DNA of 63,951 bases, filler included, from Kipferlia bialata (lineage: Eukaryota): the NCBI GenBank assembly GCA_003568945.1. It is 7 parts of 6 records of this genome, joined end to end, with 100 filler letters (N's around TTAATTAATTAA, not from the genome) between each part and the next. Parts side by side here need not be neighbours in the genome. Positions count along the whole stretch, not along the records: positions 12,647 to 25,190 come from BDIP01001070.1; 6 more parts are not named here. One strand, 5' to 3'. This document shows, piece after piece, positions 8,010-59,433 of this stretch. The stretch's first letter is position 1. The number at the start of each line of letters is the position of its first letter. Made by a program: the position numbers and the translations under genes. The notes below the pieces were generated by a model. It was not told where the DNA came from. It worked only from the letters and a program-made list of their open reading frames with translations, and made no database searches.

Positions 8010-8295
8010 CGCCTCTACTACTGATTCTCAAACCAGCGTGGGACTAGAAAGCCTTGCTGTTCTTTCAAAGCTGTCTTTGAAGTCAACATCGACTTGATAA
8101 ACCGTTTTTGTCTCACTCAGACTCAAATTGAGTCACTCAGAGTGACTCGGATATTCACTATATAACCTGTGATAACCGAGACGTAGTGCACACATACTGT
8201 ACTATACAGGTGGGCGACCGGTTGTAACTACCTCTGTTTTCAATTATTTATGTGTTTGCGGATATATACCGGTCGTTTCTATGGCACTGCACCCC

Positions 8296-12284: not shown

Positions 12285-12430
12285 TGGGCCTTACTTCAGA
12301 AAAGATTCTTGTTCCTGACGGTGAGGTTTTTGTTCAAGGGGTTTAGTGTTGGTCATGTTAATACAATGACCTCTATCGGATGAGTCACACTGATGCTTTA
12401 TACATTGTCATGCAGAATCGCCAGTCAGGA
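12285..12430. promoter_or_regulatory. Putative compact bidirectional promoter between eIF4G and the PQGQYP gene
   Basis: About 145 nt of AT-richer sequence lies between the inferred divergent starts. Confidence 0.4.
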
Positions 12431-12546
12431 ATGAACGGTTACCCCCCTTCTGGCTACCAGCAAGGCCAGAGGCCTCAGGGCCAGTACCCCCCTCAGGGCC
12501 AGTACCCTCCCCAGGGCCAGCCTCAGGGCCAGTACCCCCCTCAGGG
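12431..12546 (+). CDS. 5' fragment of a protein with PQGQYP repeats, divergent from eIF4G, cut by contig end
   Basis: MNGYPPSGYQQGQRPQGQYPPQGQYPPQGQPQGQYPPQ with an 18-nt coding tandem repeat; start codon uncertain. Confidence 0.55.
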
Positions 12547-12646
12547 NNNNNNNNNNNNNNNNNNNNNNNNNNNNNNNNNNNNNNNNNNNNTTAATTAATT
12601 AANNNNNNNNNNNNNNNNNNNNNNNNNNNNNNNNNNNNNNNNNNNN
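12547..12646. other. Artificial contig linker N44-TTAATTAATTAA-N44 (also 25191-25290, 30361-30460, 34513-34612, 47155-47254, 59778-59877)
   Basis: Identical 100-nt spacer with stops in all six frames, seen six times. Synteny across these points is meaningless. Confidence 0.97.
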
Positions 12647-12660
12647 CCCCCCCCCCCCCC

Positions 12661-12702
<42 letters not shown>

Positions 12703-12744
12703 GACCAATGCAATAATGACACATATACCCCACGTGACCCATAC

Positions 12745-14755
12745 CTGCTGCTCCCTCCTGGGGTCTGCGCCCAGCTTCCGTCCCCGTGTACCGACAGCCT
12801 CTATGCCCCCCACCGCTGTGCCGGGTATCCTGCCCTTGTCACTGGACGTGCTCTCGGCCTGCCTGCCTATCACCAGCCGGGCCTCCTCCTCCCTGCCTCC
12901 CTCTCCCTCGGCCCCCTTGGCAAAGGGAGACTCTCTCGAGAGGCAGCTGTACGCGTCTAGACTGACCCTGGAGATGCCGCTGCCGGCCAGGGCGAGTGTG
13001 GCGTCTGTGGATATGGATAAGGGGTGCAGGGAGGGGGCAAGGGCGTGCTTACCCTCGGGGCCCCTGAGGCATGCCGGACTGGATAGGGTGGGGATGGAAG
13101 GGAGGCTCTCCAGCCAGCACCCACCAGCGCCAGACACCCTAGAAGTGAGGGGGGGGTTGTATATATAGCAGGATAGAGACACCACCGAACGCTGTACCTG
13201 AGCCACCTAGTGGGTGACACGTGGAGACCAAACTCACTAGGGATTGTGGTGGGTAGGGGGCTCTTGACCGGGGTGTCGGTCTCTGCCTTAGCCTTGAGAC
13301 CAGGTCTGGGCAGGCGTCCGTACTGTCCGGGCCTGGCCCCTGGGATGAACAGGTCCCCTGTGATGGGGGGGAGGGAGGACATGCCTCCGAACAGGGGGGA
13401 CAGGGAGCGGCGGGGAGGGGGGGAGGGGGAGGTCTCTGTGTCTGAGTCCCTGATAACCATGTCAACATCGAGCCCATCCTTGATGTCTCTCAGTCTCTGC
13501 CTCTCCAGTGCCTCGAGGGATGTATCAGCATGGGGCCTCTCCCCTTCGTCCCCTCTCTCTTCAGCACCACCCGCACCCATCTCCACATCCCCACTAGCAG
13601 TGGCAGGGGGCATGGGTACATCACCCTCTCGCTCTTCCTCTCCCTCTGCCTCTGCCCCTCCCCTCCCCTTAGCCTTGGCCTCTTCAGGTTCCACATCTAC
13701 ACTCCCATACCTCTCCCCCTCTCTCTCGTAGCTCTCGACACCGGCCACTGTCCTGTCCCTCACGTTCCACCTGGCCAGATGCGATGTGTAGTGACAGTCA
13801 GAGAGGGGAGGGGGGGGTGTCTCCTTGGCTATGCCGGACTGGGTGATGCAGTACTCGGTCAGCACCATCAACTGCTCCACAAAGCGGTGCCTGGGGGTTA
13901 TGCATATATATATAGAGAGAGAGAGGTCCAGTCACACACAGACAATGCCAGTTGACATGAGAGAATGGGACATGCAGGGTGTATTGATTCCCCATATACA
14001 GACTACCACTACTTCCATATGCATATACCTCATCATGGACGAGTACTCCCCAGCAGCCATGCTCAGCGTGGATATCAGACCCCGGCAGTCAGCTGAGACA
14101 GCGCCTGGGGTTGGAGAAAGGGGGGGGGGGGGTTGACCACACACATACAATAGTACATACTTGGCTGACAAACACCATAGCAATTGTCTCCATACCTGGG
14201 ACCTCTCTGGGCAGCACTCTGCAGTAGTTGACCGGCAGCACATAGGGCCTGGTCCTTGTCTTCCTGCCCCCCTTCGCCGTCTTGGCCTTGCCCCTCTTAG
14301 GCTGCTTGGCCCTGGGGGGAGAGGGCACTGCGATCGGGGAGGCCACTGTGAGAGTGGCTAGACAGGACAGCATCTGGGCGGCATCCTCGATACCCTCTCC
14401 CTCTCCCTCTCCCTCTCCCTCGGACTCCCCCTCTGACTCGGCCTCAGCCTCTGCATCTGTCTTTCCATCCATCTCTGCTCTCTCCTTCTCCCTCTCTCTG
14501 TCAGCCACCTCCTGGGCCTCTTCCCTCAGCCTCTCTCTCTCTGTCTCGCAGTCCAGCAGCGCCCTCTCAAACCTAGTCACTATGTCCCTCTGGGCCAGGG
14601 TCAGGGGCAGCCGAAGAGACTCGTCCAGACCGTCTATCGAGTGGGCTGCCACCCAGTCTGCAGCTGGCCCAAGGGATGTATCGGGTTCAGGGGTCACCCC
14701 GAGGTGGAGAGGGTACCTCCCACCCTCTGTGACCTTGACTGCAGCGAATATCACC
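12745..14755 (-). CDS. Hypothetical acidic, low-complexity protein, internal fragment (about 4 exons: 14755-14196, 14104-14030, 13890-13197, 13137-12745)
   Basis: Long GC-rich frames bounded by GT-AG sites; no start, stop or recognisable domain. Confidence 0.6.
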
Positions 14756-14931: not shown

Positions 14932-17344
14932 GAGTTCCAGCACCTCAAGGATGAGACCTACCTAGACTACACAGGCAGTGCACTCTACCAGAGAGGACAG
15001 TTGAGGGTGAGTCTATATACATGATCTATATATATCTAGAGAGAGAGATTGAGAGAGTGTGTGTGTGTATGTATCTTGACTTCACAGGCAGTGCACTCTA
15101 CCAGAGGGGGCAGCTGAGGGTATGGGAATAGATATGTGTACATTGTGTTGAGAGAGAGATGGGCACTCTTCTCTCTCTCTCTCTCTATCTCCCTCCCCTC
15201 CCCTATATAGGTGTGTATCTTATGTATACAAATCACCCCAGGAGATGTTCACCCAGCTGGAGGGCAACCTTCTCTCTCTCTCCATCTCTCCATCTCCTCT
15301 TCCTCTCTCCCTATATCTATCACGCTATATGTATTATCTACTATGTCTCCCTTATCCCAGGAGATGTTCACCCAGCTCGAGGGCAACCTGTTCTGCAACG
15401 CACACTCAGGTACATATATCCATAGCATATATACATATATATATATTGCAGAGAACTCCCTGTATTATACACTGGGGACATACATTATATATATTCTTAC
15501 CCCCAGACTCGTCGTGTTCGCAATGATGTCTCTATATAAATAGGTATATATGGGTTGGTAGATACATTTGATCTTATCCTACGTTTGTTCTTTTCCTTGT
15601 GTGTCTAGTCTCACCCTCTAGACTCGTCCTGTTCCATGAGGACTGAGGCCGAGGTGACCAGTGTCAGAAGGACAATCATGGACTGGTTCAACTGTGGAGG
15701 TATGTATACACATTTATATATATCTATTTACAATATTGTGTATACATGTCCTCGTTCTAGTAGCCAATCATGGGCTGGTTCAACTGTGGGGGTATATGAT
15801 GTGTATAATATATACCATAATGTGTATACATTCTCTCTCTCTCTAAAGGACAATGGACTGGTTCAACTGTGGGGGTGAGTCAGATTCTACTTTCGGTCTC
15901 TCTCCCTCTCTCTACCCCCTTATTCTTCAGACGACTACACTGTCATCTTCACCGCTGGTACCACTGCCTCTCTCAAGATGGTGGGAGAGACATTCCCATG
16001 GTCCGAGGTATGTACAGTCTAATATGCAATAGAACTAGAAGTCACTAACCTTGCTATCCTCTTACCCCATCCCCCCCCCCATAGCCTACATAGTGTATAC
16101 ACGTATGTATATGTACATTATGCACCAATTATCCTGTCTTCTTCTTACCCCAGCACTCCCTGTACGGCTACTCCAGACACAACCACAACTCAGTGCTGGG
16201 CATGAGGGAGCTGGCAATGGCTAAGGTATGGGGTATTAGTATTTGTTCATATAGTATATGTGTATATATTAATGTATACATACTCAGTGCTGGGCATGAG
16301 AGAGCTGGCAATGGCCAAGGTATATGTGTGTGTATATATACATTGGTGTGTCTAGACGTGCAGACCACTTACCCCCCATGGCTCCTCCTTCCTGGCAGTA
16401 GGGTCACATATACCAAACAACATATGGTATATGTACGTATATATGTATAGAGAGTATATAGGCAGGTGTATGTACTCACTCCCAGGGCTCCTCCTTCCTG
16501 GCACTGTGTACCTGTATATATTCATTCTTATACAGATATTATTAACACAGTGTATTGTAGAGTATTTACTGTCTACTACTTACTTACCCCCCAGGGCTCC
16601 TCCTTCCTGGCCGCAGAGTGGGACCTACAGGACCCAGAGTACATACAGCAGTTCATGCCCAAGGAGGTATGCATACATTAGTTGTAGAATACATATATAT
16701 ATGTTAATCTTCGTTTCATGTATCCTCCCTCACTCCCAGTCTGAGGAGGAGTCCTCTGAAGAGCCAGTGGAGCAGTTCAACCCAGAGGTACAATGCGTAT
16801 ATGTATATGTATGATGGGAATATGTAGGTGGATATAGAATATATAGGTGGTATTCACTCACTCTAGGAGACCCCTGCCCCCCTCAATGATGAGACCGAGG
16901 AGGCCTTCCACCTGTTTGCATTCCCCGCAGAGTGCAACTTCAGTGGCATCAAGTGAGTTATAGTGTCTTCTGTATTCACTATTCATTATACACATATTAT
17001 ATATATACCATCTATACTACATATATTCTGTCACCGAGGTGTATGAGCACATATGTCCTCGCCCTCAGATACCCCCTTGACCTTGTGCATGCTCTATCCC
17101 TCTCTCTCTGTCTCTCTCTTCATGTGTATATAGAATAGTATGTGTCCTTATTCCCAGGTACCCCCTGGACCTAGTGCATGCTCTCAAGAGAGGTACACTC
17201 GGAGAGCACCTACTGTCTAGGTAGTGTACCAGAGTATATACATACAGCACAGTGGTAAATGTGGATATATGTAATATATCTACTCCGACACCAGAGCCGT
17301 TGAGACCTCTGCCATGCCCCCTGGGTACAATGTCTCTCTCTCTC

Positions 17345-17384
<40 letters not shown>

Positions 17385-18285
17385 TGTAGTATACGTTTCC
17401 TTACCCTCCAGAGCCGTTGAGACCTCTGCCATGCCCCCTGGGTACAAGAACAGGACCAACACATGGAGAGTGTGTGTGGACGCTGCTGCATATGCACCCA
17501 CTAACCCACTCGATCTACAGGTACGCAAATAGTATATATGGATTTCATATGTACTATACATATGTATGAATATTACTTCTTTTTCCACTGGATCTACATG
17601 TGACTACCCACTATATATAGAGAGAGGCGTGTATTCAGTAATAGTATGTACGTGTATATATCCCCTCACCCCAGGCCTTCCCCGCTGACTTTGTCACCAT
17701 GTCCTTCTACAAGCTGTTCGGCATCCCCACAGGCCTGGGGGCACTACTCGTCAGGTAGTCTAACGTACTCAGTCCCTATGTATATATGTTCTTTAACAAA
17801 TACATGGATTGATTACCCCCCCTCACCCAGGAAGGACGTGGCACTCTATCCACTCTACATTGTACTTATATGTACCTACATATGTTCCTATGTATTTATA
17901 TCTCCCCCTCACCCCAGGAAGGACGTGGCACACTACTCCACTGCAAGTAGTATATAATACTATAAATGTATAACCCCTTTGAATATATATACGTATACAC
18001 CCCCCCCCCTCACTCCCCAGGAAGGACGTGGCACCTTTCATGAACAAGACGTTCTTCGGAGGAGGTATTGTTAGTACATGCACAAATACACATATACCCT
18101 GTTTACGAGAGGAATACACACCATTATACTATTCTCTCATTGTCTATTGATTACCATTGTTGTCTATCTTCCCCCTAGATAATACATGCTTTGGACGAGT
18201 ATACACATATATGTTGTGTTTCAATAACACTTGGGGTGTCGTACAGCATTTGTCTCACCCCAAGGCACTGTCGTTGCCGTGTCCT

Positions 18286-18320
<35 letters not shown>

Positions 18321-18724
18321 ACATATCCCTTATATTCAATACCTTACACACAGGCACTGTGGTTGCTGTGTCCTGCGACTCCTCCTTCTGCAAGCTGAGG
18401 TGAGGCTAAATATATATATCGTGGTACGATATTACTCCTCTGTTTAATACTTCTCTGACCCCAGACCCATCTCCAACGAGAGGTTCGAGGACGGCACAAT
18501 CTCATTCCTCGACATCATTGGACTGAGGTGTGTATAGTACTCTAACATCGTATATATATATATATATATATACCAATATATATATACCTATATCAATACA
18601 TATATCTATCTATATACATGAATATATATATAAATCATTGGGCTGAGGTATGTTTGTTTGTTTTACAATACATGGCAGTCAACCAATCGCCGGCTACAAT
18701 ACCTTCAAGTCCCTTGGAAAGCAG

Positions 18725-18760
<36 letters not shown>

Positions 18761-20748
18761 TCTCTCTATCTATATATATCTAGTATTTTTGTCTCGTTTT
18801 AACGCTGGCTTCAACGTGTTTGAGTCTCTCTCTCTTTCTCTCGCTATTTCTTTCTCTCTCTCTACATGATGATATCTAATATCAGTGCTGGCTTCAATGT
18901 GTTCAAGTCCCTTGGCAAGCAGGCCATCACAGACCATGTCTGGACACTCACCAGATACCTCTACTTGAGGGTCAGCGCCCTCAAGCACAAGTGAGTATAG
19001 TTGTGGGTATACATATATACATACACTATTACATATTACTACTACTACGTGATCACGTATATATCTCAGAGTCAGTGCCCTCAAGCACAAGTGTACTCCC
19101 CACACAATATGTTGATATAGAGGACTATCTAGTGTAAATATTGTACTCCATATATCTAGTATTATCTTTCTTACCCCCAGGAATGGCCGTCCCCTCCTAG
19201 AGATATATGGCAACCACGAGCACGGAGACCCAAAGAGACAGGTACGTATTCAAGTCTTAGTTGTAGATTGCTGAGCACGGAGAGAAGTATTTATCCTACG
19301 CCATTGGAATGTACCACTTTTCATGTCTCACTCCAGGGCGGAATCCTCTCCTTCAATGTCCTGTCGCCCAAGGGGCAGTACGTGCCATTCAAGATTGGTA
19401 CGGTGTTACTTTACTTGTAGTTCTTGACATTTATATTAAGTGTATATATTACTATGTACATTTCGTGTTTCTTCCTTACCACCCAGTGATGGAGGCTGCC
19501 AAGACCTCCAACCTCATCATCTCTCCCCTGTCAGTGATTACTCCAACCATACTATGTTCCTCCATAAATGTATTGATATATCCATATACACTAACCCCCA
19601 GTGATGGAGGCTGCCAAGACCTCCAACATCATCTCCTATCCCCTGCCAGTGATTACTCCAATCATACTATGTTCCTCTATATATATGTGTGTGTATGAAT
19701 ATATATACTAGTATTCTTACCCCCAAGTGATGGAGGCTGCCAAGTCCTCCAACCTTCTGGAAATGCATATACAATGATGCATAACTCATGTGTGTAATCA
19801 NNNNNNNNNNNNNNNNNNNNNNNNNNNNNNNNNNNNNNNNNNNNNNNNNNNNNNNNNNNNNNNNNNNNNNNNNNNNNNNNNNNCTTACCCCCATCCTTAC
19901 CCCCAGTGATGGAGGCTGCCAAGGCCTCCAACCTTCTGCTCAGGGCAGGGGCACACTGCAACCCAGGGGCCGCTTTTGGGTACGGGTAGTGAATAGATAG
20001 TATAGTTTGGGTAGTGGATATACAATTAATGGTATCGTATTATATAGTATCACCGTATACTTCCGGTGGGTTCTAGTGGACGTTCAATTTATGATAGACC
20101 ACTCTATACTCTTCACCTTTCCATCCCGATATACCATTAACATGAGTAACTGTACCCATATATATGCATGTGCACCATGTCATTATATCCTTCCTCTCAC
20201 CCCAGCTACCTGACGATCGAGGAGGAGGACGTCCAGACAATTCTGCAGGTATACAGTAGTGTATATAGTATATTATATATATATATATATATATTATTAA
20301 CTATTCCCTCCGTATGTTATTATGTACTAGTGTACCATGTATGCAAGTACTGTGTCTCCCTAGCTGTACTATGTATACCTTGTGCATATAATATATATAC
20401 CTTACTCCAGGAGCGTGAGTCCTGCCACGCTGGTGACGGTATGTGGGAGGGCAAGCCCCTGGGTAGCTGCAGGGCATCCCTGGGGTACCCTACTACAGTG
20501 ACAGATGGTATGTGCTAATACTGATGAATGGAAGTCACGATTATATATGTTCACCCCAGTCGACAGGCTGACCACCTTTCCCAATACCTATGTGCTATTA
20601 TATCCATATGTATATTCATATAAATATATGTGTGTGTGTGTGTATGTATATGTGTTTGTGTGCACATACTCTCCTCACCCCAGTCGACAGCCTAACCACC
20701 TTCCTCAAGGCCACCTACACAGACAGAGACATGCCCAAGGATATGTAG
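14932..20748 (+). CDS. Molybdenum-cofactor-sulfurase-like (ABA3/MOCOS NifS-type, class V PLP) protein, about 21 exons, 5'-incomplete, no MOSC domain
   Basis: Exon peptides [88 protein letters not shown] (PLP Lys), [33 protein letters not shown]; stop TAG at 20746-20748. Confidence 0.9.
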
Positions 20749-20848
20749 AGAGAGAGAGAGAGAGAGAATGAGAGAGAGAGAGAGATGCACGCCCAGGGAG
20801 ACATGCAGCATGTAGAGATAGAGTGGGGGAGTGTGTCTCTGTGTTGGA

Positions 20849-20894
<46 letters not shown>

Positions 20895-21466
20895 ATATGG
20901 CAGGGGATGGGTCCTGTACATCTCTTGTACAGAGTGCTGTTTTAAAGCTGTTTAGTTGCACACACACCCTTGCCTAGTACAAGCTCTCTATTCAACAGCG
21001 CGGTTGCGGTGTATTATGATTGGTTTGTGTTTACATATATAGTATATATAGTGGTTTCTTAGTAACAATAGATTTATGCATTGGAGGAGTATGAGCATTT
21101 CTGTATACTCTTCAGTATAGTGACTGGAATTGTTCCTACCAGACTGGAAGTTCCAGTCCACGCCATGTCTAACCTCAATATCTATCAAATATATCAAATT
21201 TGTCATATTGATGTTGATCACATTACAATACTTATCATAGCTGTACACACAGTAATATATGTGCCCCACTTCCTGAGACTCAAATAGATAAGAGTATGTG
21301 TTACACTGAGGCTGAATGAACTACACAATCAAGCTCTCGACATATATTACACTCTCAGTATCAGTCTTGGGACCGAGACTTCTCATCATATACACATATT
21401 CATATACTCTCCACAGTGTACAATCTACACGATTGCCTGTTGCGGTAGGGATATTGAACACTGACA

Positions 21467-24400
21467 CTACACAATTGTCTGCTGCACACCCATATGTGAA
21501 ACAGAGGGTACATACACTGCGGCCTTCCTCTCTGGGTATACCAGCAGCATCAGAGACACATACTCCATAGTGTTCATGCAGATGTTGGAGAGGGACTTGA
21601 CCTGCGGATAAGAGGTGTACATACATATACAAAGATAGAGAGAGAGAGAGAGATACACACTCCATGGTGTTAATACATATGGTGGAGAGGGACTTGACCA
21701 ATGGTGGCATGAGAGATTAATGGAGAGAGAAAGGAGAGACACGCATATACTAATTACTTACACTCCTGATGCAACAACTATACACAAGTACACACATATA
21801 TATGAATATAAATGATTAGGTATACATATACATACCTCCTGACTGGGCACCCACCACTCCATCCTGATCAGGACGTACAATTATATAAACACATATACAT
21901 ATGTATATATATATATACACATATATGTATACCTCCTGTGATGGTACCCACCACTCCATCCTGATTAGGAAGTATATCAGCTTGGACCCGCCATATGTCA
22001 GGATGAACACGGGTAGAGCATACACCTTGGAGACCTAAGTATTAGGCCTAGTAGAGACAATGGTACTAAATATGATATATAAATATATACATTCATATAT
22101 AGGATACAAGATATATATATAATGATATATACATAGGTCAGGATGAGCACGGGGAGGGCATACATCCTGGAGACCTGGGTTAGAATTGCAAAGAGGGAGA
22201 GAGAGACAGACGCACAGAATACATGCATCTTGGAGTCATGACTGTATCATTGTTGAATACAATGGTATACAGACCAACATGTCTCTACCTTCTGTCTCTT
22301 GTGAGATGCCTCCTCTGTATCACTTCTAGTGAGCATATATACTAATGTATATACATACCAATATATATGTATAGATATATATATATACTGATCCTTACCT
22401 TCTGTCTCCTGTGCGATGTTTCGTCTGTGTCACTCCTGGTGGTGGAGAGGACAATCTTGCTCACACGCTTGGTGGATCGCCTGAGAAATGAGTAAATATT
22501 TACCAACCTTGATTCGCTATATAAATCATTCTGCTGTATGTACTACAGTACTATACATGCATATACATTGACATCAATGTATATATACCCAATCATGACC
22601 ATGACTAGCAGGATGACAGAGACGCATATAGAAATATACAAGAATACAGATATATTTATATATATACGTAAATATACAAAGAATATGTATATTACTATAT
22701 ACCTCCTCATTGCCACCTATGGTTATCAGTATGACAGACATTTACATACATTATGTATCTATATGTATATACTAATATATATATACATATGTATGTATAT
22801 ATATATATATATATATATCTGTACCTTCTCATATATAACTGTACCTTCTCATTGCCACCATAACCACTAGGATGACAGACAGATGCATGATCTGCAGAGT
22901 GCCCAGGATTTGGTACAGGGCAGACACCTGGTTCATATGGGTATCCTAAGGGTAAAATAGAATACTATATATATACATAGATATATATATATGTGTATAT
23001 ATGGAGAAGGAGATTAGTAACAAAGCGGGAGAGAGAGAGAGATTGAGTTGCACAGTATATGTGAGGCAGAGCTGCAGAGAGAGATGTTAATATTTATATG
23101 TGTTGTATAAGTGTAAGCAACCACATACCAGTGCCTCCTGTGTATCTGTCTCATGTTCTTTGACCCATGTGAAGTCCCACACAAAAAGGGTCACAGTGAC
23201 CACAGCCAGGACGGCACAGACAGCTGTACTGATATCAGTATCAGATGCACATATGAATATATATCTGTGTGTATATGAGAATGATGAATCTATACAGACT
23301 ACCACAGCCAGGATAGCACAGACGGCAGTGCCGATGTGAGTTAAGAAACCAAAAACTAATCATATAAATATATGAGAATATAGAGATACAGTACTACAGC
23401 CAATAGGGCACAGACAGCAGTGCTTGAATGAGCGTATTACTTGGAGTATATCTATATTCCACCTCCATCATATACTACAGATACTGATACTGATACATCA
23501 TGAAGTATCATTATTTCACAGATAGAAACTTGACCATGTGGGTCATACCTTGTTCGTGTTATGATATATAATACAATATATTATATATTTATATTATACA
23601 TATTATATATACTTGACCATGTGGGACATGCCTTGTCCGTGTGATGCGTCTGAAGGTACGTGTGCTCCTGAGCCCACGGAACACCTGGGGGTTAGAGTTA
23701 ACGATATATGTCTATGATATCTGATGAATATGTGTAAATGTTTTTACATGTGGCAGAGATACTATGTGGGGAGTGCAGTGACACAAGAAACATTTACATG
23801 TATACATTAGACATATATTGTAGTGGATGCATATGAATAGCACTATCTACCTCGGGCAGAGTGGCATTGTCATGAGCACTGTGACTTCAAATACTATATA
23901 GAATACAGTAAAGACTATAAAGACTATATATACTGCATATACTACAACAATATAAAGATTACATTTACATNNNNNNNNNNNNNNNNNNNNNNNNNNNNNN
24001 NNNNNNNNNNNNNNNNNNNNNNNNNNNNNNNNNNNNNNNNNAGATCTGTACCTGTATAAATATCAGGCAGAGTGGCATTGTCATGAGCACTGTGACACCC
24101 GAGGTCAGGAATGTGAAGGTGGGATCCCCTGAGTGTAAGTATATAGAAACATATACAAATAGAGAGAGAGAGAGAGAGACAGTGGCACCCGAAGTCAGGA
24201 AGGTGAAGGCGGGGTCACCTTAGTGTAAGGGTATGTATAGAGAGAGAGAGAGAGAGATAAGAATCATCTGTTTCGAGACATACATTGCTTGAAACATACC
24301 GAAGAATCCGTACACCTCACTTGGCCAAAAGAAGTACGCTGCCACGATGACACCCGTGAATGTACTGGGGGTTAGAGGGTGTAGTGAATGAAATGAAATC

Positions 24401-25154: not shown

Positions 25155-25329
25155 GGGGGGGGGGGGGGGGCAAAAGAAGAGGGGGCCCAANNNNNNNNNN
25201 NNNNNNNNNNNNNNNNNNNNNNNNNNNNNNNNNNTTAATTAATTAANNNNNNNNNNNNNNNNNNNNNNNNNNNNNNNNNNNNNNNNNNNNCCACCATATA
25301 CTATATATAAATCTTGATTACACCATTAA

Positions 25330-26674
25330 CCTTCACTGGCCCTGGCACATCTGTCAGGTCAGCTGGGTCAGGGTTCTCGGCGATGAGGGCATCGGACCAG
25401 TAGTTGGCAGAGATCTTATCCTAGTGGTGAGCTGCATATATACATGATATCCTTGCATAGATATGAATATGTATATATATATATATACATAGAAAGAGTG
25501 ATGGTAAAATGAGGGCTTGTCCTATGTAATAAACGATAGACCCATGACTACATATGTGTATCCCCTGTCAGTCTATATATCTATATATGTCCATAAATAC
25601 CTTGGGGTCCGATGTGAAGTTGAGCATGTCGATGAAGTCGATGCTATATGATATAGTACACTCTCTCTCTATATATAGTAGATATACATCCAATACATAT
25701 TCATTCTGTATATACGCATATACGTATCTACCTTGGGGTCCGATGTGAAGTTGAGCATGTCGATTCTCATACAGAGTACACATTATTCACAATATATATC
25801 ACTCTACCTATCTATCTATACACATCTATCTCTCTATCCAGAAAGAGACTATATAGTACCTTGGGGTCCGATGTGAAGTTGAGCATGTCGATGAAGTCTA
25901 TATGTATATAGTGCATATACACCTTTACAGGTGTATATATATATATATATATATACTGTACTTCTATGTATATATATACCTTTGGGTCCGATGTGAAGTT
26001 GAGCATGTCGATGAAGTCGATGCTGGTGGCCTTGGCAACCTAGAGTGAGACCAAATGTATATGAGAAGAGAAAAAGAGTGACTCATTCATATAGGGCATG
26101 TCAAATGTGTATGAATACATTCAATTAGTGACATACAATGCATATCACCAACACATACGTACCTGTATCGTTGTGAATGCCCCATCCTCCTCCTCCACCA
26201 ATGAATGTATATATATATATACCATCCACTTGTACTTGTTATTGAGAATACCACAAAAAGTTGGTATATATACAATCATTCAAGCATCCATACACTGTGA
26301 ACATATCTACCTGTATCTTTGTGAATGCCCCGTCCTCACCGTTCATGCTATATATCTACCTTGATACTATACTATTAAAGTAAAATTGCGTTATAGTATC
26401 TATTCATCATACCTGTGTATACGCAATGTGTATAGCCTAACAGTGAATACCTGTATCTTTGTGAATGCCCCGTCCTCATCGTTCAAGCTATTAATCTGTC
26501 ATCATATAGTACTATAGTATATACATATGTATATATAGTATCTACTTAATATACCTGTATCTTCGTGAGTGCCCCGTCCTCATCGTTCATGGACCCAGAG
26601 GCATCGAGGGAGATGCAGACCATTAAGTTAGACAGATCAGTATAAGTAAGATGTACATACACATATGTCTAGTG

Positions 26675-26726
<52 letters not shown>

Positions 26727-28726
26727 TGTGCATGGACCCAGAGGCATCGAGGGAGATGCAGACCTATTGTGTAAGGCGGGAGTGGTCATTGTAGTAAAAG
26801 GGAGAGAGAGAGAGAGAGAGAGACATTGTTCATGGACCCAGAGACATCGAGGGAGATGCAGACCTAGGGGGTATGGGGAGTATATAATTATATACACAAA
26901 TGTGAATACAAAGCGAGAGAGAGAGAGAGAGAGAGACATTGTTCATGGAGCCAGAGGCATCGAGGGAGATGCAGACCTAGGAGTGAGAGGTATATATAAG
27001 AATACAAATACATATGTGTGTATATATGTAATATATATAGGGGGGGAGAGAGAGAGAGAGACATTGTTCATGGAGCCAGATGCATCGAGGGAGATGCAGA
27101 CCTAGGAGTGAGAGGTATATCATATATATATGAATGCATATATATATGTGTATGTAAGTAATTATATATAGGGAGCGAGAGAGAGAGAGAAAGAGAGAGA
27201 GCCATTGTGCATGGATCCAGAAGCTTCGAGGGATGCAGACCTAGTTACCAGAGGCTCTATAAACGTATAGGAGAGGAGAAGACAGAGAGAGTCATGTCTG
27301 CATTGTACGAGATATATAGTACACCGTGTACCTCCAGTGGCAGGAGCTGCTCGTCGGTGTTGCCATAGCCAGTGACAGTGAGGAGAACCTAAGAGTGAGT
27401 GTGAGGTATCAATGTCTAACACACACTCTCTATACGAATCCCTCTCAACGTGTAGAAGTACAATAATCTATATATATATTATATATTTATATTTATTTAT
27501 ATTTATATTTATTTATATTTATTCATATATATATATTATATATTTATATACATACTGTCATACCTCAAAGGTGTCGGGGAAGGGAGCATCAATGTCATTC
27601 CTAGAGTGAGAGAAGGACAAGTGATAAAAACTATATCATAAAGTGCCGAAAGTAGAATAGTGAGAATATGTCCACATAGTTTCAGATACCTCACGACAGC
27701 CGATGGTGTGACTGTCTGTGTGATCTATGTGTGAATATTGGCGATGGTCAGCTGCTTGATACATACACTCTCTGTCCACACATGTAGAAGTATATATATA
27801 TATATATATATGTGTGTGCATATATGTGTATATGTACATATATATATACCTAACTACAGCCGATGGAGTGACTGTCTTTGTGATGATCAGCTGCTTTGGT
27901 GGTAGGAGAGGAGAGTGAGGAGGGACAAAGGCAGGAGCTGGAGTCCTAATAATGAGTGTGGTAATAGTAATGGGTATATACTATAGATATCATTGTATTA
28001 TGTATATATATACATGTAGCTTCGGTGGAAGGAGGGGTGAAGGAGGAGGGACAACGGGAAGAGCTGGAGTTCTCTGGTTAGTGGTAACAACACATCTACT
28101 TTCTCTATATGTTCATATATATACATAAATACGCTAATAGGGAGGGGCAGAGACAACGGGAAGGACACGAGTCCTGTAATGAGGATGGAACAAGTAAGTG
28201 GAGTAAACATCACATGGGCATATTATATATATGTTGGTGTATAGTCACACATATGCCAATACCTAGCCTCAGGCTCTGTCCTTGTCAGCGGCTCTCTGTA
28301 TATGACCATACGTAGATAGATATATACATATACGTATATACTACACTATATACAACTTAGTTACCTAGCCTCAGGCTCTGTCCTTGTCAGTGGCTCTCTG
28401 TACATGGGCTTCTCGGGGTAGAAGCAGCGCTGGGGTGAGACGGAGGGTATAGAGTTCTAAACAAGACTAGTGTATATATTCAACAAGTATGTGGGTGTAT
28501 TATGTATGCATACCTCACTGGTTGGGCATGGTATGAACCGCATGGCACACTTATATATGTGTATATATGTACAGTGTTTATTATGGTATATATATGTATG
28601 TATATATACATTACCATATACCTTGCTAGTAGGGCATGGAATGAACCGCATGGCAGCACACTCCCCAAGGTCTGTGTCATAGAAGGGGGCCAGGCATTGG
28701 TCAGCATCGAAGAGAAGCTACTAGTT

Positions 28727-30001: not shown

Positions 30002-30624
30002 TATAGGAGTGACAGGCCATGGCATCGTCATGCCACAGGGCAAGAGCTACTATCAGAAGTAGAGAGAGAGAGAGAGTGTGTGTGAGAGAGAGAGAGAGAG
30101 AGGAGTGACAGGCAAGGGCATCACCATGCCACAGTGTAACGGTTGAAGTTAGTTATATAGATACTCATTTATACATATAGAGATAGAGACAGAGACAGAG
30201 CAAGAGAGCATATATATGTGTGTGAAGAGAGAGAGAGAGAGAGAGAGATGGTAGTCCATGGTATATAGACATACAACACGGCAAGAGCAAGGATGAGACA
30301 AATTGATATATAAGGAGAGGGGGGGGGGGGGGGGGGGGGGGACGCAAAACCCACAAGATTNNNNNNNNNNNNNNNNNNNNNNNNNNNNNNNNNNNNNNNN
30401 NNNNTTAATTAATTAANNNNNNNNNNNNNNNNNNNNNNNNNNNNNNNNNNNNNNNNNNNNGAGGAGAGAGAGGGGGAGGGGGGGGGGGGGGGGGGGAATC
30501 GCCAGTCTGCCTATTGTCAGGTATATATTTACAAAGAGAGAGAATCTGGACAGTCTACCTAGTGTGAAATGAATATATACACATCTCTATATATAACGAG
30601 AGAGAGAGAGAGGTGTGCACATAC

Positions 30625-33600
30625 CTGGTGACGGAGGTCGCCTCAGAGAGGCCGGGGACTGAGACCCACCGGCCACACCACCTCTAGGAGCAATAGAAGA
30701 GGGAGACTGATGCCGCACATGTGACTGCGGTGTCCTCACCCTGCCTGACCCCTGGGGGGTCCTCACCCTGCCACTACCAGGAGTCCTTGCCCGCCTGCTA
30801 CCACCGGAGGACACACCATCATGAGCCCTCCCTGACCCTGACCTAGTATCAGTATCAGCATCACTATTAGTATCATATATACATACTGATACTGACCCTG
30901 ACCTGGGTGGCACAGGGGTAGACAGGGATGGGGTTCTAAGGTGAGTGGTACCGTCTCTCCCCCTCTCAGGAGTCTTGGAACCCTTGCGAGGGGACCTTCT
31001 TGACTGGGGGGTTACAGAAACTCTCTCCCTACTTGGACCATGTCTCTCCCTTTCCCTTTCTCTAGTGGGCGTATCCATCTCCCTCTGTCTAGAGGGTGTA
31101 TGTCTCTCCCTCTCTCTTGTGGGTGTGACATGTACAGATGGTGTTGTCACAGTAGCAAGGGGGATGTCCCTCTCTCTATCTCTCTCCCCGTCTGTTGAGT
31201 CATCAGGTGAGCTGGCCTCTCTCTCTACCACTCCCCCCCTGTCTCTAGTGGGTGATACCGCCTCCCTCTCCCTCTCCCTCTCTCTAGTGGATGTGACATG
31301 CACTGTCTGAGCCAATGCTCTCTCTCTCCCTCTACTCTCTGTTTGAGCCAGTGCCCTCTCCCTTGCATACAAGACAGCATCCCTCACTGGGGCAGAGGCA
31401 GAGAGAGTGAGAGGGGCAGAGGGGGAGAGAGCCACAGTGCCCCTGATGGAGACTGGGGAGGCACCTCTCTCTCTCTCCGGCTGGCCCCTTATGGGAGAGA
31501 GAGTGTTTGTGCCGGGAGACACCAGACTCTGCATCAGCAGGGCGCTGATCTCCACCTCAGCCTCTCTCTCTCTCTCACTCTCAGTCTCAGTCTCAGAGTC
31601 TGTGGGTTCGTCTCTCCTCCCGTCTCCGTACCCCTCACCCAACTCATCCGCACTCTCTCCCCCTCCCCCTCCCCCTCCCATATACATATCCCCACCTCCT
31701 CCCATATGCATGGCTGATACATCGAATGAGGAGGAGGAGGAGGTTGAGGAGGAGGGAGAGACAGCGAAGGAGTGGAAGGAGGAGTCCGAGGAGGAGCCGT
31801 CAATCATGACCTGAAGGTTAGAGAGAGGGAGAGTCAGGAAAGGAAGAGTCAAAGGCGGATATAGCAACCAGATGGCACCGAGAGAGAGCTGGGATAGAAA
31901 TAGAGATCGAAATGACAGAATGACCGTATGTTGGACCCGATCCTCACTCTTTGGTATCACAATGTAATACCAATCAATAATAATATATATGTGTCCATAT
32001 TTGTGTATACAAGAACTAATATGTATATGGACTGTAGTACCTGATCCTCACTCTCTGGTATAACAAAGGATGGGGAGTCCACACCAGGTGACACATCGTA
32101 CTGGGATAAGAGGGGAGAGACAGAGATAGTGGGTAGCAGATGACTCTCACACAGAACCGAGAGAGTAGGGGGTGGTCAGTATTCGGTCACTCAGAATAAT
32201 AATGAGAAGGGGAAGGGACATAGAGAGAGAGAGTACCTGTGAGAGTCTCTGCCTGCGTCTGTGCCTTAGCATAGGGTGCCACTGGGGTCAGACAGAGATT
32301 ATATTACCCATATATATATATATGTATATATACCATATACTGTGGCAGAATATGGGGTGCCACTGGGGTCAGACAGAGACAGATATATACATATATATAT
32401 ATGTATATATACCTGACTATCTGGTGTGTGTATCCTATGCCTCCTGGTTGGTGTGGCTGATGGGTGACCACCTATATATATATACGTATATTCAGATATA
32501 TATAAATACCTGACTGTCTGGGGTATGTATCCTATGCCTCCTGGTTGGCGTGGCTGATGGGTGGGTGGCAACCATAGCCGCACGCATGCCACGCTCCTTC
32601 TCTCTGATTAGACGCTGGTGGTGAGAAGGGTGAGAGGAGAAGAGAGGGAGGGAGCAGAAGAGGGAGGGAGGAGGAAGGGAAGGAGGGAGGGGGGGGGGGG
32701 GGATTTGCAACGATAACTGCATGTAAGGTTTCCAGTAACCATATGGGAAGGCACAACCTAACTGAGGGACCTTGCAATGTGAGCAATATAACATCAGTAC
32801 CGACCAACCTCAAGTACCGATACCTATTCAATCCTCGACACTCATCCAAACAGACACACCCTATAATCACTCGTAATATGTTACAGAGCACTGTACCAAC
32901 CATATTAAGACACATAGCTACATATAGGACACTATGGGAAGAGTACCGGCAAGTATACAATTGGCGGTACCGACATGTCTCGGTACCGGTAGCACTCTAT
33001 CTTCATATCCCCCTTCATATACACGCCTAGACGCCTAAAGAGACTATATACAAGCACTAGGTTCAACAACTAAGCGTATAGGATGGTATACACAGAGTAT
33101 GACACTAGGCAGTACCGATACCTGTTTCAGTACTGACAGACCCCTCCCTATAAATATCCACTATACACACACCTACACACCAATAGAGAATATATACAGG
33201 CAATAGGGTCGACACATATGGGTTAATAGTGGTGGTATCCACAGAGTTATGTCAATAGTACCGATACCTGTTTCAGTACCGGCAGCACCCTGCCCCCATC
33301 TGCCCTGACACCAGAGGGAACCATGCCCCTCCTGTCAGCTCTGATGCAGGATGCAATGGAGGGTATGCCGGGTATCCCAGGTGGAGACCCCCCTCCATCC
33401 ATTTGGGTCAAAAGTGGGCGGTACCGGTACCGATACCAAACACTCTCTGTCGGGGGTTACACCCCCTCCCTCCCGTAGACCACACGCACCTGTGCTACTA
33501 GCACTGCTGGGCGGCTGAGGCTGACCCTGGATATCCTTGGGGTGTGTGGTGATGGGACACAGTGGTAGAGAAGGTGACATGATTTCGAGGTTCCATTTCC

Positions 33601-34491: not shown

Positions 34492-34703
34492 ACCCCCCCC
34501 CCCACCCCCTCCNNNNNNNNNNNNNNNNNNNNNNNNNNNNNNNNNNNNNNNNNNNNTTAATTAATTAANNNNNNNNNNNNNNNNNNNNNNNNNNNNNNNN
34601 NNNNNNNNNNNNCCCTTCCCTTTTCGGTCTTTCCCCCCCCCCCCCCCCTCTCTCCCCCTCTCTCTCTGTCTTGATGGCCACTCAAGCCTCTAACCCCCTT
34701 CAG

Positions 34704-37700
34704 GCGTCTCCACGCCTCCATACACTCTGTGCACTCACCCTCCATGGGACTGGGGTCAGGGAGAGAGAGGCCTATGTCTCAAGTGCGGAAGACACAGGTA
34801 TGGTGTTGTTCTATTCACGTGTATCTATATATGATGTGTAGATTCATTCCTACTGTCATATATACTCACTCTAGGCTATGTATGAGTCCTCTGTGCAGTC
34901 CATGCTGACCAGCTCTCATATCTATCTATCTATCTACCTAGATATATACATGTCTATACACTCACTCAAGGCCCTGTATGAGTCCTCTGTCCAGTCCATG
35001 CTGATAGGGGATATATATTTATATATAGTGTATATACATACTATCATATGTATACTAACACTAGGCACTGTATGAGTCCTCTGTCCAGTCCATGCTGACA
35101 GGGGATATATGTATCTATATTATATACATACCCACAAGTATATATATAGTATATATACCTACTATCATATATACACATATACTAACACCAGGCACTGTAT
35201 GAGTCCTCTGTGCAGTCCATGCTGACAGGGGATATATATATATATCTATATAGTATATATACATACTAATATATATACACACTAACACTAGGCACTGTAT
35301 GAGTCCTCTGTCCAGTCTATGCTGACAGGGATATATCTATATAGTATACATATCCACAAGTATATATATATATATAGTGACACTTACCCTAGGCCTTGTA
35401 TGAGACCTCTGTCCAGTCCATGCTGATAGGGGATATATATACCTTCACATATGTATATACACGTAGTAGTATGTATATATATAGTATATACTTACCTTAG
35501 GCCCTGTATGAGTCCTGTGTCCAGTCCATGCTGACAGGAAGTGATGAGACTACAAGTCAAGAGATGGAGGAGAGGAGAGTGAGGTATATATAGTGTATAT
35601 ATATATACATAGAGAGAGAGACAAAGGGGGAGAGAGAGAGAAAGACTGACCAGCCAAGAGATGGAGGAGAGAAGAGTGAGGTATGTGGTGTTTGTTTAGA
35701 GAGAGCGATAGAGAGTAAGATAGGGAGAGAGAGAGACAGGGACTGATTGGTGATGTGCATGAGAGGAGAGGGTATAGAGTATAGAGAGAGGGAGAGGGAG
35801 AAAGAGAGAGAAGGTCAGGGACTGACGAGCAATGATAACTCTTCTTCTGTCGCTCTCTATTTGTTGTGTACTATATATCCCTGTTACTTTCCAGTGTCTC
35901 TCCCTTCCTTGTATATCTATCCCTCACCACCCAGATACCTTGAGGACCTTGGCTATGGCGATGTGGCCAAGCAGATATTGGAGGTATACTATATGTATAT
36001 ACATGTAGTGAATACATGAATTATATTGTGCATACCTACAAGGCCTATGGCGATGTGGCCAAGTAGATATTGGAGGTATATATGTATATGTAGTCTCTAG
36101 TGTATATATACATACCCTTGTGAAAATCATGGTTTGAAGATGCTATGATGTCGCCAAGGAGATCATTCATTTGTGAAGAACAACGATACATTTGATTAGT
36201 TTGTGCACATACACACACGCTACCCCTCCCCTCACCCCCCAGGCCTCCCCTGCCACTATATGGATATATATATATATATATATATATCGATATATGAAGA
36301 CATATTACAGCTCTCATGCACTCTATATATCTGCACTCTACACCCACTACCCCCAGGCCTCCCCTGCCCAGCCCAGCCAGATACAGACACCCATCAAGAA
36401 GAGAGGTATATATATATATATTNNNNNNNNNNNNNNNNNNNNNNNNNNNNNNNNNNNNNNNNNNNNNNNNNNNNNNNNNNNNNNNNNNNNNNNNNNNNNN
36501 NNNNNNNNNNNNNNNNNNNNNNNNNNNNNNNNNNNNNNNNNNNNNNNNNNNNNNNNNNNNNNNNNNNNNNNNNNNNNNNNNNNNNNNNNNNNNNNNNNNN
36601 NNNNNNNNNNNNNNNNNNNNNNNNNNNNNNNNNNNNNNNNNNNNNNNNNNNNNNNNNNNNNNNNNNNNNNNNNNNNNNNNNNNNNNNNNNNNNNNNNNNN
36701 NNNNNNNNNNNNNNNNNNNNNNNNNNNNNNNNNNNNNNNNNNNNNNNNNNNNNNNNNNNNNNNNNNNNNNNNNNNNNNNNNNNNNNNNNNNNNNNNNNNN
36801 NNNNNNNNNNNNNNNNNNNNNNNNNNNNNNNNNNNNNNNNNNNNNNNNNNNNNNNNNNNNNNNNNNNNNNNNNNNNNNNNNNNNNNNNNNNNNNNNNNNN
36901 NNNNNNNNNNNNNNNNNNNNNNNNNNNNNNNNNNNNNNNNNNNNNNNNNNNNNNNNNNNNNNNNNNNNNNNNNNNNNNNNNNNNNNNNNNNNNNNNNNNN
37001 NNNNNNNNNNNNNNNNNNNNNNNNNNNNNNNNNNNNNNNNNNNNNNNNNNNNNNNNNNNNNNNNNNNNNNNNNNNNNNNNNNNNNNNNNNNNNNNNNNNN
37101 NNNNNNNNNNNNNNNNNNNNNNNNNNNNNNNNNNNNNNNNNNNNNNNNNNNNNNNNNNNNNNNNNNNNNNNNNNNNNNNNNNNNNNNNNNNNNNNNNNNN
37201 NNNNNNNNNNNNNNNNNNNNNNNNNNNNNNNNNNNNNNNNNNNNNNNNNNNNNNNNNNNNNNNNNNNNNNNNNNNNNNNNNNNNNNNNNNNNNNNNNNNN
37301 NNNNNNNNNNNNNNNNNNNNNNNNNNNNNNNNNNNNNNNNNNNNNNNNNNNNNNNNNNNNNNNNNNNNNNNNNNNNNNNNNNNNTAGGCCAGCCCAGCCA
37401 GATACAGACACCCATCAAGAAGAGAGGTATGCATATATACATACATTGTATGTGTATAAGGACTCAGAGAGTGTTATCCATGGGCAAGACTACCAGTATG
37501 GCAATGAAGAATAGGCATTGCATATATGGCAAAACATACTGTTCACATTCCCCCAAATAATGCTGATATATATATTTCTGTTATGTCCTCTTTCCCCTGA
37601 CCCCAGGTCGGAAACCTGGGAGTCTGGCCATTGTGAACAGAATCAGAGACAGGTACGAGTGTGTTGTATATGTATGTATATGTTCGGCCTAGTAGGACCA

Positions 37701-38645: not shown

Positions 38646-40538
38646 AATATCTATATAGGCAGTATATATCCATGTACTGTATCTCACCCCCAGGAGCAGT
38701 GTGTCAACCAGGCCAGGGCAGGGGCCATACCAAAGGTGAGTATCAGGATACATACTACACAATTATCAGTATAACACAAAATACATATGTATGTTTGAAT
38801 ATGTATATGGGGCCAGGGCAGGGGCCATACCAGAGGTGACATGGATATATATGTGTATATACATCTATGGTAGAGTATTCTTATATGCACCTCCCTCACC
38901 CCAGGTGACTGTGCAGGACACAGCCCCACTGCACAGGGACAGGATGGACTGGCTCAACGATGAGGTAGATGCAGTGTATAGTATATATAGTATAGTATAT
39001 AGGATATATATAGTATATATACATATATCACTAGATAGGGACAGGATGGACTGGCTGAATGATGAGGTATGTACAGTGTATAGTATAGTGTGGTATATAT
39101 AGTATATAGTATACAGTGTATATGTATATATGCCACTGCACCGGGACAGGATGGACTGGCTGAATGATGAGGTGGGTATAGTGTATATATAGCTGTGTAT
39201 GTATATATAGAATATCAACAGGACCATTTAGCTCCCCCCATATATATATATATATATATATGCATTGTATAATACCATTTATGGAGCTCTCTCTCTCTGT
39301 TTATAACTACTATCATTAATCCCCAGGTTGTCAACAGGACCATGGAGCTGTACCTGGAGAACACAACGAGACGGTACGGGCATTGCTGTATACATATTAG
39401 AGTACCTTTTTTGTACTCCTCTTCCTCCTCATCTCTCCCTTCTTCTTTTTCTCTCTCTCTCTATTTGGCTAATCCCAGTGCCCACTGCTACTCCTCCTTC
39501 TTCTACCAGTCCCTGACCAGGACAGGGGGGTACAACTACGCAGCCACTAGGGTACGTCAGTACTGTATATACTGTATATATGTATATATGTAAATAGTAT
39601 ATATATATATGTATATGTGTGTGTATATGTGTATACCAGTCCCTGACCAGGACAGGGGGGTACAACTACACTGCTACCAAGGTATATACTATATGTATAT
39701 ATACACCTAAATATGCATATTGTATTGTCTTATTGTTGTACATGTGTAGTTGTGTGTAAGTATCTTACCCCTAGAGGTGGTCCTCCCGTCCCAATGTGTC
39801 CCTTGCCTGTCTCTCTATATATATACTTAAAGACATATCTCTCTTTGTGTATAGAGTGTATCTAACCCCCCGCAACCAAGGTATATTCTGTATGTATATA
39901 CACCTTAATTTGTTTATTATATTGTCTCACATCTAGAGATGGTCCTCCCGTGCCAAGGTGTCCAAATATCTATAATTTTATATCTATATAAGTATAGTAA
40001 TACATATATATATATACATCTAACACTAGAGATGGTCCTCCCGTGCCAAGGTGTCCATTGCTGACCTTGATGTGCTGTGCATACCTGTCAACTGGAACAA
40101 CACACACTGGACATGCATCGTGGCAGACTTCAGTCTCAAGGTATGTATATATATATATATTGGTATATAGTATGGGAATAGATAGTGTGTGAATATATAT
40201 TTGTGTGAATATATGTATATGTATACATACCTGTCATACATGTATTCATATTTATATACTCTATAGTAGTCTGTATATTCTTACCCTCAGTGCATCATGT
40301 ACTATGACAGTCTGGGTGGCATGAGGCCAGATGCAGTGTATATATATATACCGTATATACTATGTCTATATATATATGCCATATACCCTTAACCCTCAGT
40401 GCATCATGTACTACGACAGCCTGGCTGGCATGAGACCAGATGCATATATACGTATATATATATACCTTTTATTCAATGTAAACTGAGTATCTAACCTCAG
40501 TGCATCATGTACTACGACTCCCTGGGTGGCATGAGACC

Positions 40539-40569
<31 letters not shown>

Positions 40570-58376: not shown

Positions 58377-59433
58377 CGGTATGAATGGCGCCTCCTCCAG
58401 TGCCAGCTGCTCTGTGGTGACTCCGTATCTCGCTAGGTTGGTGGGAGTAGGGTCTAAGTCCCCACTCTACATGTGAGATGCCCCAAACAATTGACCTCAA
58501 GGAACGGATCGATGGATATGTCGGGAATACACATATATACCTTGAATAGCCCCAGTGTCAAAGAGAAAGATAGTGGGTAGTTGATATATGTATATACACT
58601 ATCTATACACATATCCACCTTGAATAGTCCAAGTGCCACGTGGGTATCCAGCTCAGCCACCGTGGTATACCTGGGAGGGTGAGTGGAGATACAAGAGATA
58701 GTACGTAAATATATATATATATATATGTGTGTGTGTGTATATATACATACACCGAATAACTGGGAGGGTGAGAGGAGATATATACTATATAAGTTAGTAC
58801 GAATACAAAGAGAGACAGCTCACTTTACATCAGTGTCACTTACCCTCTAACTGTCTCACTGCCCCACCCCAGGCCCTCTCTTATACCCTCCATGACTGCA
58901 CTTGTACCAGCGTTGATGGGGGCATACATCATCCACTATATATATATATATATACATATTAGAAGTAAGTTGTCACATACCCTCTAAGTGCCTCAGCTTC
59001 CCATCCTAATCCTTCTCGTATACCCTCCACCACTGCACTTGTACCAGTGTTGATGGGTGCGTACATCATACTGACACACCCATGGTCAGGGTCAGTATCG
59101 GCATCGACCTAACGAGTTAGTGCAACACGACTAACACTAATCATACACACACACAGACACAATACATACCTTGCATGTACGAATCTACATGGGGTTGTAT
59201 GTACACCATACTATATATATATGAGTATACCTTGCACATGCCAAGTGTATCCATTCCTGTGGGCGTGTATGTAGTGACCATGAACAGGGGAATGTATGCA
59301 TTATATATGCCATACACCATGTATATATGTAGTCAATGGGTGTATACCTTACATATTCCCATGGTGTCCATGGTTATTGGGCTGTATGTGGTGACCATGA
59401 ACAGGGGGAGGTACAGGAACACAGTCGAAGTGA
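49705..59433 (-). CDS. Full-size ABCA-subfamily transporter (two TMD/ECD-NBD halves), 5'-incomplete
   Basis: NBD1: GSNGAGKST, VGLCPQH, LSGGMIRRLS, VVLDEPTTGLDP. NBD2: GASGSG|KTT (split by an intron), MPQHD, LSGGMRRRLS, TDEPTTGLD. Regulatory motifs PSFTEYFL and PRLEDAFL; stop at 49705. Confidence 0.93.

Follow-up and report, generated by a model that had tools for sequence, protein, structure and literature searches.

Mutually exclusive duplicated exons are neighbouring copies of an exon that carry silent and conservative differences. Silent cassettes are donors for gene conversion, as in bird immunoglobulin pseudogenes and the archives used in antigenic variation. Internal gene duplication, and the gain of introns when an AGGT segment is duplicated in tandem, are treated in the available text of a review (PMC3443670), and reportedly also in PMC3265369 and by Gao and Lynch in 2009. 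A further described system consists of minisatellites that span an exon-intron boundary. The available part of PMC1557585 describes them in F7 intron 7 (37 bp), CBS intron 13, 6-16 intron 2, lamin B2 (100 bp), and PDGF intron 4 (81 bp). In these F7-type repeats, as presented there, tandem units repeat a splice site within the intron and the site nearest to the exon is used. They occur in few genes, on donor sides, and as near-identical units.

Junction-spanning repeats are also found in the free-living protist Kipferlia bialata, for which the available text of the genome paper gives 124,912 introns (PMC5874029). They were studied in a 63,951-nucleotide stretch of its DNA, referred to as the window. 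The window consists of several contigs joined by 100-base runs of N with the same 12-base centre (12547-12646, 25191-25290, 30361-30460, 34513-34612, 47155-47254, and 59778-59877), and neighbours across these joins therefore need not be real. Several of the joined pieces measure ~12.5 kb. The treatment of KIPB_004829 and KIPB_004830 as a single gene was dropped because such a 100-N join lies between them.

A working exon of KIPB_004829 (21933..22034, minus strand) has 34 codons, AG/GT flanks, and an open frame, and lies within the annotated protein P0001 and within a spliced contig (X2 contig 11). The introns on both sides of it contain partial copies of the exon, called echoes here. The 3' echo (21836..21871, minus strand) consists of the last 12 codons and a GT donor, without the exon head. 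The 5' echo (22133..22174, minus strand) consists of an AG and the first 14 codons and runs on into an AT repeat. Read directly and by script, the 3' echo (21871-21836) departs from the final 36 nt of the exon at six bases, all of them silent (CTA/CTG, GTA/GTG, CCA/CCC, and TCA/AGT). Both encode LIRMEWWVPSQE, and a GT follows each. AT-rich intron rather than exon head lies upstream of the 3' echo, and the sole AG near it is also internal to the exon and out of frame. Thus the first-pass annotation, which had reported six base changes in a 36-nt echo with the same 12 residues, a kept GT, and no acceptor, was confirmed from the sequence and by script. Its description of the 5' echo as differing from the first 42 nt of the exon by three silent and three conservative changes (K/R, V/M, and F/L) also stands; its position of 22173-22134 was one base off and is corrected to 22174-22133.

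For these 36 nt, six changes at random places preserve the peptide with P=7.5e-6 (400,000 trials), and six changes in which silent ones are weighted twofold, as in a dead copy, do so with P=2e-4 (400,000 trials). When the 120 echoes of the window are allowed for, the chance of an all-silent 36-nt echo is ~0.02. Five of the six changes fall in seven consecutive bases, and the cluster can alternatively be written as two 1-nt insertions and a 2-nt deletion. As a result, the exchange of Ser codon boxes, TCA for AGT, may be one complex event. Another Ser box swap (AGC/TCC) is present in a different echo, in the array at 40291..40542. The Ser swap by itself is weak evidence.

The exons next to the focal one, all on the minus strand, also have echoes. 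The last exon of KIPB_004829 (21467..21601), which is joined directly to exon 22034-21933 in X2 contig 11, has a 50-nt 5' echo with seven mismatches and a lost AG (21649..21698). The working exon upstream of the focal exon (22399..22480) has a 3' echo with its GT (22289..22331), and the working exon at 22845..22945 has a partial tail echo at 22620-22598. Two 5' echoes, 23329-23301 and 23421-23393 (together 23301..23421), belong to the working exon at 23129..23228, and their differences from each other and from the exon are mostly silent. A search with the last exon led to one protein, P0001 (KIPB_004829), the single member of its cluster, which carries the exon residues and not the 5' echo residues where the two differ. 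The two annotated proteins, P0001 and P0002, have one cluster member each. P0001 has no Pfam name; an Atlas lead only, to a THH1/TOM1/TOM3 or GPR137-like membrane protein, was obtained for it (score 0.92, 169 features, family on 36% of the cluster).

Evidence on the physical state and splicing of the focal region comes from contigs. Two runs (X1 and X2) of one sample were compared at 85% likeness over 19900-23500 only; the sample is possibly the source of the window, and its support is not independent. No run is recorded as RNA, and X2 is presumed to be RNA, with its exon-to-exon contig as the sole support. This contig, X2 contig 11, has pieces matching 21269-21602, 21934-22032, 22397-22479, 22844-22944, and 23128-23230, which are consecutive in the record and show no other letters. 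It is spliced over four junctions, includes the focal exon, and omits every echo in between; wherever a spliced contig is available, the splice sites closest to the exon are used. The exon's own codons run throughout 21934-22032 with no other letters, which is not the result expected of a new intron of the AGGT type, made from the donor of a first copy and the acceptor of a second. No X2 contigs lie on the focal 3' echo.

In X1, the 5' echo and the focal exon occur in one contig (contig 4, 21934-22768, depth 381). A second contig (contig 3, 20901-21882, depth 403) contains the 3' echo, the preceding intron bases, and the next exon, with no other letters, and the 3' echo is thus truncated in the DNA contigs too. 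Nearly all listed contigs have a depth of ~270-520, and no other letters are reported for them. No second version of any covered exon in 19900-23500 was present at a likeness of at least 85%; contigs lose rare forms and small bubbles, and uncovered bins are uninformative. A full-length exon bearing the echo codons, which the first-pass annotation had envisaged as a second allele or paralogue, was likewise absent among contigs at this likeness, and the annotated protein has one cluster member.

These contigs bear on the proposal that the echoes are an assembly artefact created when two haplotypes were stitched in tandem at microsatellites. Such an origin is extremely improbable, although the echo junctions lie at simple repeats, the species is reported as diploid with two k-mer peaks in the available text of PMC5874029, and no single contig in X1 or X2 spans both the focal exon and the 3' echo. 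A separate assembly from DNA reads has the 5' echo with the exon and the truncated 3' echo, at depths that are ordinary rather than halved, without a separate contig for a full variant, and two haplotypes cannot yield arrays with five or six distinct copies. The first-pass annotation had allowed for a mis-stitched haplotype or an ordinary alternative exon. At the level of contigs, the focal echoes are not a mis-stitched haplotype, and no use as an alternative exon is seen, because they occur at ordinary depth with the second allele absent, and the spliced contig omits both of them.

The wider occurrence of echoes was assessed on 90 exons that were hand-curated by splice sites and open frame, and whose flanking introns were searched for copies. 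Hand curation was used because the first automatic gene model ran into echoes. RNA cover extends to 7 of the 90 exons, and the remainder rest on curation or annotation. The counts are for this window, with genes studied from five separate pieces. Outside these counts are the gene at positions 1-5600, the genes with long exons at 5500-14400 and at 47300-56500, KIPB_004830 in its 5' part, and, near 23.6 kb, an exon together with the intron next to it. In all, 120 echoes adjoin 57 of the 90 curated exons and lie in 54 of 81 internal introns. The focal echo, which had been singled out as special, therefore belongs to a set of 120. The echoes comprise 63 exon heads upstream, 50 exon tails downstream, and seven internal pieces; none is reversed, none is a copy of a whole exon, and 113 are anchored at the exon end. 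Codon-shuffled exons gave a mean of 0 echoes at an equal score threshold (3 shuffles x 180 exon sides). Exon matches elsewhere in the window or in inverted orientation amounted to just eight weak ones of 15-23 nt, mostly of low complexity, which were taken as chance. The median echo is 33 nt long, and the median unit, an intron piece together with the exon part, is 108 nt. Inner junctions carry a dinucleotide repeat more often than expected (38% vs 25%, p=7e-5). The echo pattern is that of a partial tandem duplication across a junction, of the sort that spares the exon.

Several echoes are arranged in arrays. Five 5' echoes (26724..27233, minus strand) lie before 26620-26555 in another gene, in the KIPB_004830 region, and six (34879..35430, plus strand) lie before exon 35501-35583. 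Three 5' echoes in a Ulp1-family gene (40291..40542, plus strand) include the second Ser box swap, and two of their silent sites show a four-gamete pattern. The longest echo is an 89-nt 3' copy (58844..58932, minus strand) of exon 59108-58981. By eye, echoes also appear near 781-860, 3200-3340, and 3541-3720 in the first gene (541-3700, plus strand), and these are outside the 120.

Other features of the window were recorded alongside the census. A 21-exon gene (14932-20748, plus strand), which resembles one for a molybdenum cofactor sulfurase, lies tail to tail with the 3' end of KIPB_004829 near 20750-21460; four of its single exons had no Pfam match. Echoes are present in two further plus-strand genes, one at 61533-63716 that resembles a gene for an Atg18/WIPI WD40 protein and one at 43303-46996 that resembles a gene for a BRO1-domain protein; Pfam searches on single exons of these two genes also gave no match. 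The regions 5494-12235 and 48789-56558 consist of long, GC-rich, nearly intron-free frames with Pfam matches to RING finger, MIF4G, exonuclease, and ABC transporter domains, some of them under the curated cut-off. Thus, two contrasting gene architectures occur in one genome, near-intronless long frames beside genes with exons of 40-110 nt. In a long exon of KIPB_004830 (~30760-30830, minus strand), there is an in-frame tandem peptide repeat that may perhaps reflect the duplication process behind the echoes, acting where the frame is kept.

The architecture of the echoes is already known from F7-type repeats, at least as these are presented in the available part of PMC1557585. The Kipferlia units are head-to-tail, span a junction, and carry a splice site, the exon-nearest site is used while the pseudo-sites are silent (in one sample, from contigs only), and the unit sizes overlap. 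The two differ in that the Kipferlia repeats are found in 54 of 81 introns and on both donor and acceptor sides. Furthermore, a Kipferlia unit includes ~33 nt of exon, has diverged flanks, and shows a codon-structured divergence that exceeds the dead-copy floor. The units are neither near-identical over their full length nor evenly decaying, because their exon parts are ~90% alike and their flanks are near background. Similar to AGGT duplications in the available text on them, the echoes are small intragenic tandem duplications that take in splice signals without altering the protein. However, no new intron arises in Kipferlia: the copy adds to the length of an intron already present and is removed with it by splicing. 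In the open-access main texts searched, a comparable echo density on both splice sides was undescribed, and so was a silent excess past the dead-copy floor. The words 'tandem' and 'duplicat' do not occur in the available main text of the K. bialata genome paper (PMC5874029). While the junction-spanning repeat architecture is known, the divergence pattern is unexpected.

How did the echoes come to differ from their exons? Over 77 exon sides, echo/exon mismatches were found at 141 of 2643 0-fold sites and at 142 of 663 4-fold sites, which is a 0-fold/4-fold ratio of 0.25 (95% CI 0.20-0.31, bootstrap). The ratio lay at 0.12-0.28 in each of six gene groups, and was 0.24 after a control for base composition, 0.27 on trimmed cores, 0.25 with one echo per side, and 0.24 without three exons that are missing from the annotation. 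For exons with RNA cover alone, which have 10 echoes, it was 0.23 (p=0.016 vs 0.5). Silent changes made up 222 of 381 changes (58%), compared with a neutral expectation of 24.5% and a dead-copy expectation of 39.4%. Single-base replacements were conservative, with a mean BLOSUM62 score of +0.44 vs -0.44 +/- 0.17 (94 codons). Echoes of the same exon differed from each other in much the same way as from the exon (0-fold 78/1419, 4-fold 74/352; ratio 0.26, CI 0.19-0.44). At 4-fold sites, changes from GC in the exon to AT in the echo and the reverse were nearly balanced (58 vs 44), indicating that the echoes have not drifted to intron composition.

One expectation is that of ordinary dead copies, in which slippage duplicates decay freely, the exon alone is protected, and silent differences are merely doubled. 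This would explain the polarity of the echoes, the arrays, the stops, and the frameshifts. It is nevertheless very improbable, because a copy dead at birth should give a ratio of at least ~0.5, as silent sites would diverge along both lineages but replacement sites along only one. The observed ratio and the share of silent changes contradict this prediction in the window, and none of 5000 bootstraps reached 0.5. A simulation of dead copies that included the detection rule gave 0.41-0.78 (0.41 being the lowest 2.5 percentile; nine settings, 20 runs each), while a simulation of two constrained lineages with a short decay reproduced 0.05/0.2. Under the dead-copy explanation, the exon would have to mutate ~3x faster than an echo 100 nt away. 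Thus, the conclusion that most echo divergence arose under coding constraint is supported. The proposal of the first-pass annotation that the differences were mostly acquired as coding sequence gains from a ratio of 0.25 over 120 echoes against a dead-copy floor of 0.5.

The echoes are not coding in their present place, as seen from their stops, frameshifts, lost AG dinucleotides, weaker acceptors, and undepleted stops. Stop codons occur in five echoes, two of them at segment edges, and four of six indels shift the frame. Stops among replacements number 4 of 94 against 3.5 expected, that is, without depletion. The AG is kept in 53 of 63 head echoes, leaving ten without it, and the GT in 47 of 50 tail echoes. 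Echo acceptors are weaker on average than real ones (6.4 vs 9.5 bits, p=0.04), and the idea that they are stronger was rejected on average; the best echo acceptor outscores the real acceptor in 16 of 35 cases. The acceptors at 40595, 41349, 46135, and 28717 score well under upstream echoes and are closest to the exon, and their use is predicted. A 66-nt exon-like innermost copy at 26555-26620 (minus strand) is preceded by TG instead of AG, which is present in four of the five upstream echoes. P0002 omits this copy, which may be a dead or skipped exon or have a non-standard acceptor. Also missing from P0002 is a 96-nt in-frame exon-like stretch at 27850-27945 (minus strand) that has good splice sites and echoes of its own.

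Could the echoes be minor alternative exons or splice sites, held by selection on the protein? Mostly intact splice dinucleotides, the strong echo acceptors in the 16 cases above, and the focal 5' echo, whose 42 nt between AG and GT would permit in-frame inclusion, are compatible with it, and some human cases make use of two donor pseudo-sites according to the available part of PMC1557585. This explanation is nonetheless highly improbable, since X2 contigs are absent from the focal 3' echo, the spliced contig omits every echo in its stretch, tail echoes have no acceptors, most head echoes have no donors, and unit lengths are not multiples of three (35/116). Because contigs lose rare forms, echoes may still be used at a low level. 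Compared with mutually exclusive exons, a Kipferlia echo has one splice site and is skipped, and a complete copy with both splice sites was found in none of the 120 cases.

It appears just probable, on balance, that echoes are partial, non-coding tandem copies, omitted by the spliced contig, and that their exon parts came from other working alleles of the same gene. Copying may begin when an exon with a break or a stalled fork re-anneals ~100 nt out of register at an intronic (TA)n or (TC)n repeat. The ~108-nt units, an intron piece plus ~33 nt of exon, are seen only in positions that keep the exon whole, with heads upstream and tails downstream. The template may often be the other homologue, and an out-of-register template switch or crossover would then leave the exon head of one allele and continue with the whole exon of the other. 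Slippage combined with allelic recombination, or conversion of an old echo from the homologue's exon, would have the same outcome. Alternatively, allelic recombination or conversion may later pair an echo with another allele's exon. The echo/exon differences would in each case be differences between alleles, mostly silent or conservative, plus a short free decay. The available text of PMC8516963 describes metamonads as lacking Ku, DNA-PKcs, and classical end joining and as thought to depend on homologous repair.

The origin from a second allele is consistent with several observations. The other copy is most likely another allele, since a second copy is absent from the sample. Intron positions 3-8 of the flanks are 55% alike on the acceptor side and 50% on the donor side, against backgrounds of 42% and 48%; this likeness is above controls on the acceptor side (p=8e-7) and not clear on the donor side (p=0.07). 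The flanks are near background even beside identical exon parts, and their likeness is uncorrelated with exon-part divergence, a pattern that simple ageing explains less well than donor alleles or conversion do. Other observations are against donor alleles. The donor allele is unseen, and the sample has one version of each covered exon in 19900-23500. The fit requires two constrained lineages, each with ~0.09-0.10 changes per silent site, and ~0.04-0.05 of free decay, with an implied 4-fold diversity among donors of ~0.18-0.2. This diversity would rank with the highest known in eukaryotes; a synonymous diversity of 0.20 is recorded for Schizophyllum commune in the available text of PMC4576712. 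In addition, 0-fold divergence between echoes is no greater than between echo and exon, although two dead branches should raise it. Scans of metagenomes for relatives found none.

The order of echoes within arrays was also considered. A crossover origin predicts that the newest echo is innermost, but outer echoes were not more diverged (15 vs 13 of 29 arrays), and growth of the arrays in order was not supported. A four-gamete pattern occurred in one of nine arrays of three or more echoes (1 of 11 site pairs), and this check on transfer between copy and exon gives no direction.

The same physics would operate in a two-copy history, which requires few donors instead of a diverse population. Here, diverged functional homologues of an asexual or old hybrid lineage would have left scraps as heterozygosity was lost. 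The sample looks homozygous in this region while the echoes look allelic, and the main repair route in metamonads is homologous recombination in the available text of PMC8516963, both as this history would have it. It is unlikely, however, because, at 4-fold sites, echoes of one exon are as far from one another as from the exon, so that many donors or repeated cycles would be needed. Moreover, 16 of the 120 echoes match the exon exactly, and the divergence values are scattered without a peak.

A quite unlikely explanation is that the echoes are constrained in place. Old echoes would recombine into the exon by pop-out or conversion, harmful changes would be selected out, and the echoes would act as a reservoir of cassettes. 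Conversion that leaves a silent divergence of 0.25 would be only a few-fold above the mutation rate, and selection through such a load would be weak; this objection lapses if diversity is already extreme. Stops and frameshifts remain in the echoes, which is a further difficulty. On the other hand, the near-background flanks beside well-kept exon parts, even in identical echoes, the retained GT, the equally low ratio between echoes, the absence of an order trend, and the one four-gamete case are as expected. Like silent cassette donors, the echoes are unexpressed, coding-like partial copies beside an expressed copy, and their ratio of 0.25 and conservative replacements amount to a coding-like constraint. 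They differ in that they flank ordinary genes (a Ulp1 protease, an ABC transporter) and in that transfer into the exon is putative.

If the window is typical, most introns of the intron-rich genes of Kipferlia would have been enlarged by copying of exon junctions, and echoes may mislead gene prediction in this organism. The arrays would also provide thousands of natural tests of site choice by a reduced spliceosome, in which the last acceptor copy would be taken even where an upstream copy outscores it; 87 of 174 spliceosomal proteins were found (PMC6679479). If, as the silent excess suggests, the dead copies hold past working alleles, a single genome could reveal both diversity and which amino acid changes are tolerated. 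A more speculative and rather doubtful possibility is that the introns of this species form a genome-wide archive. In such an archive, tens of thousands of exon-end copies, made from former working alleles by homology-based repair in an organism that has no classical end joining, would preserve a hypervariable species' diversity within a single near-homozygous genome and would be able to recombine back into exons as pre-tested variants.
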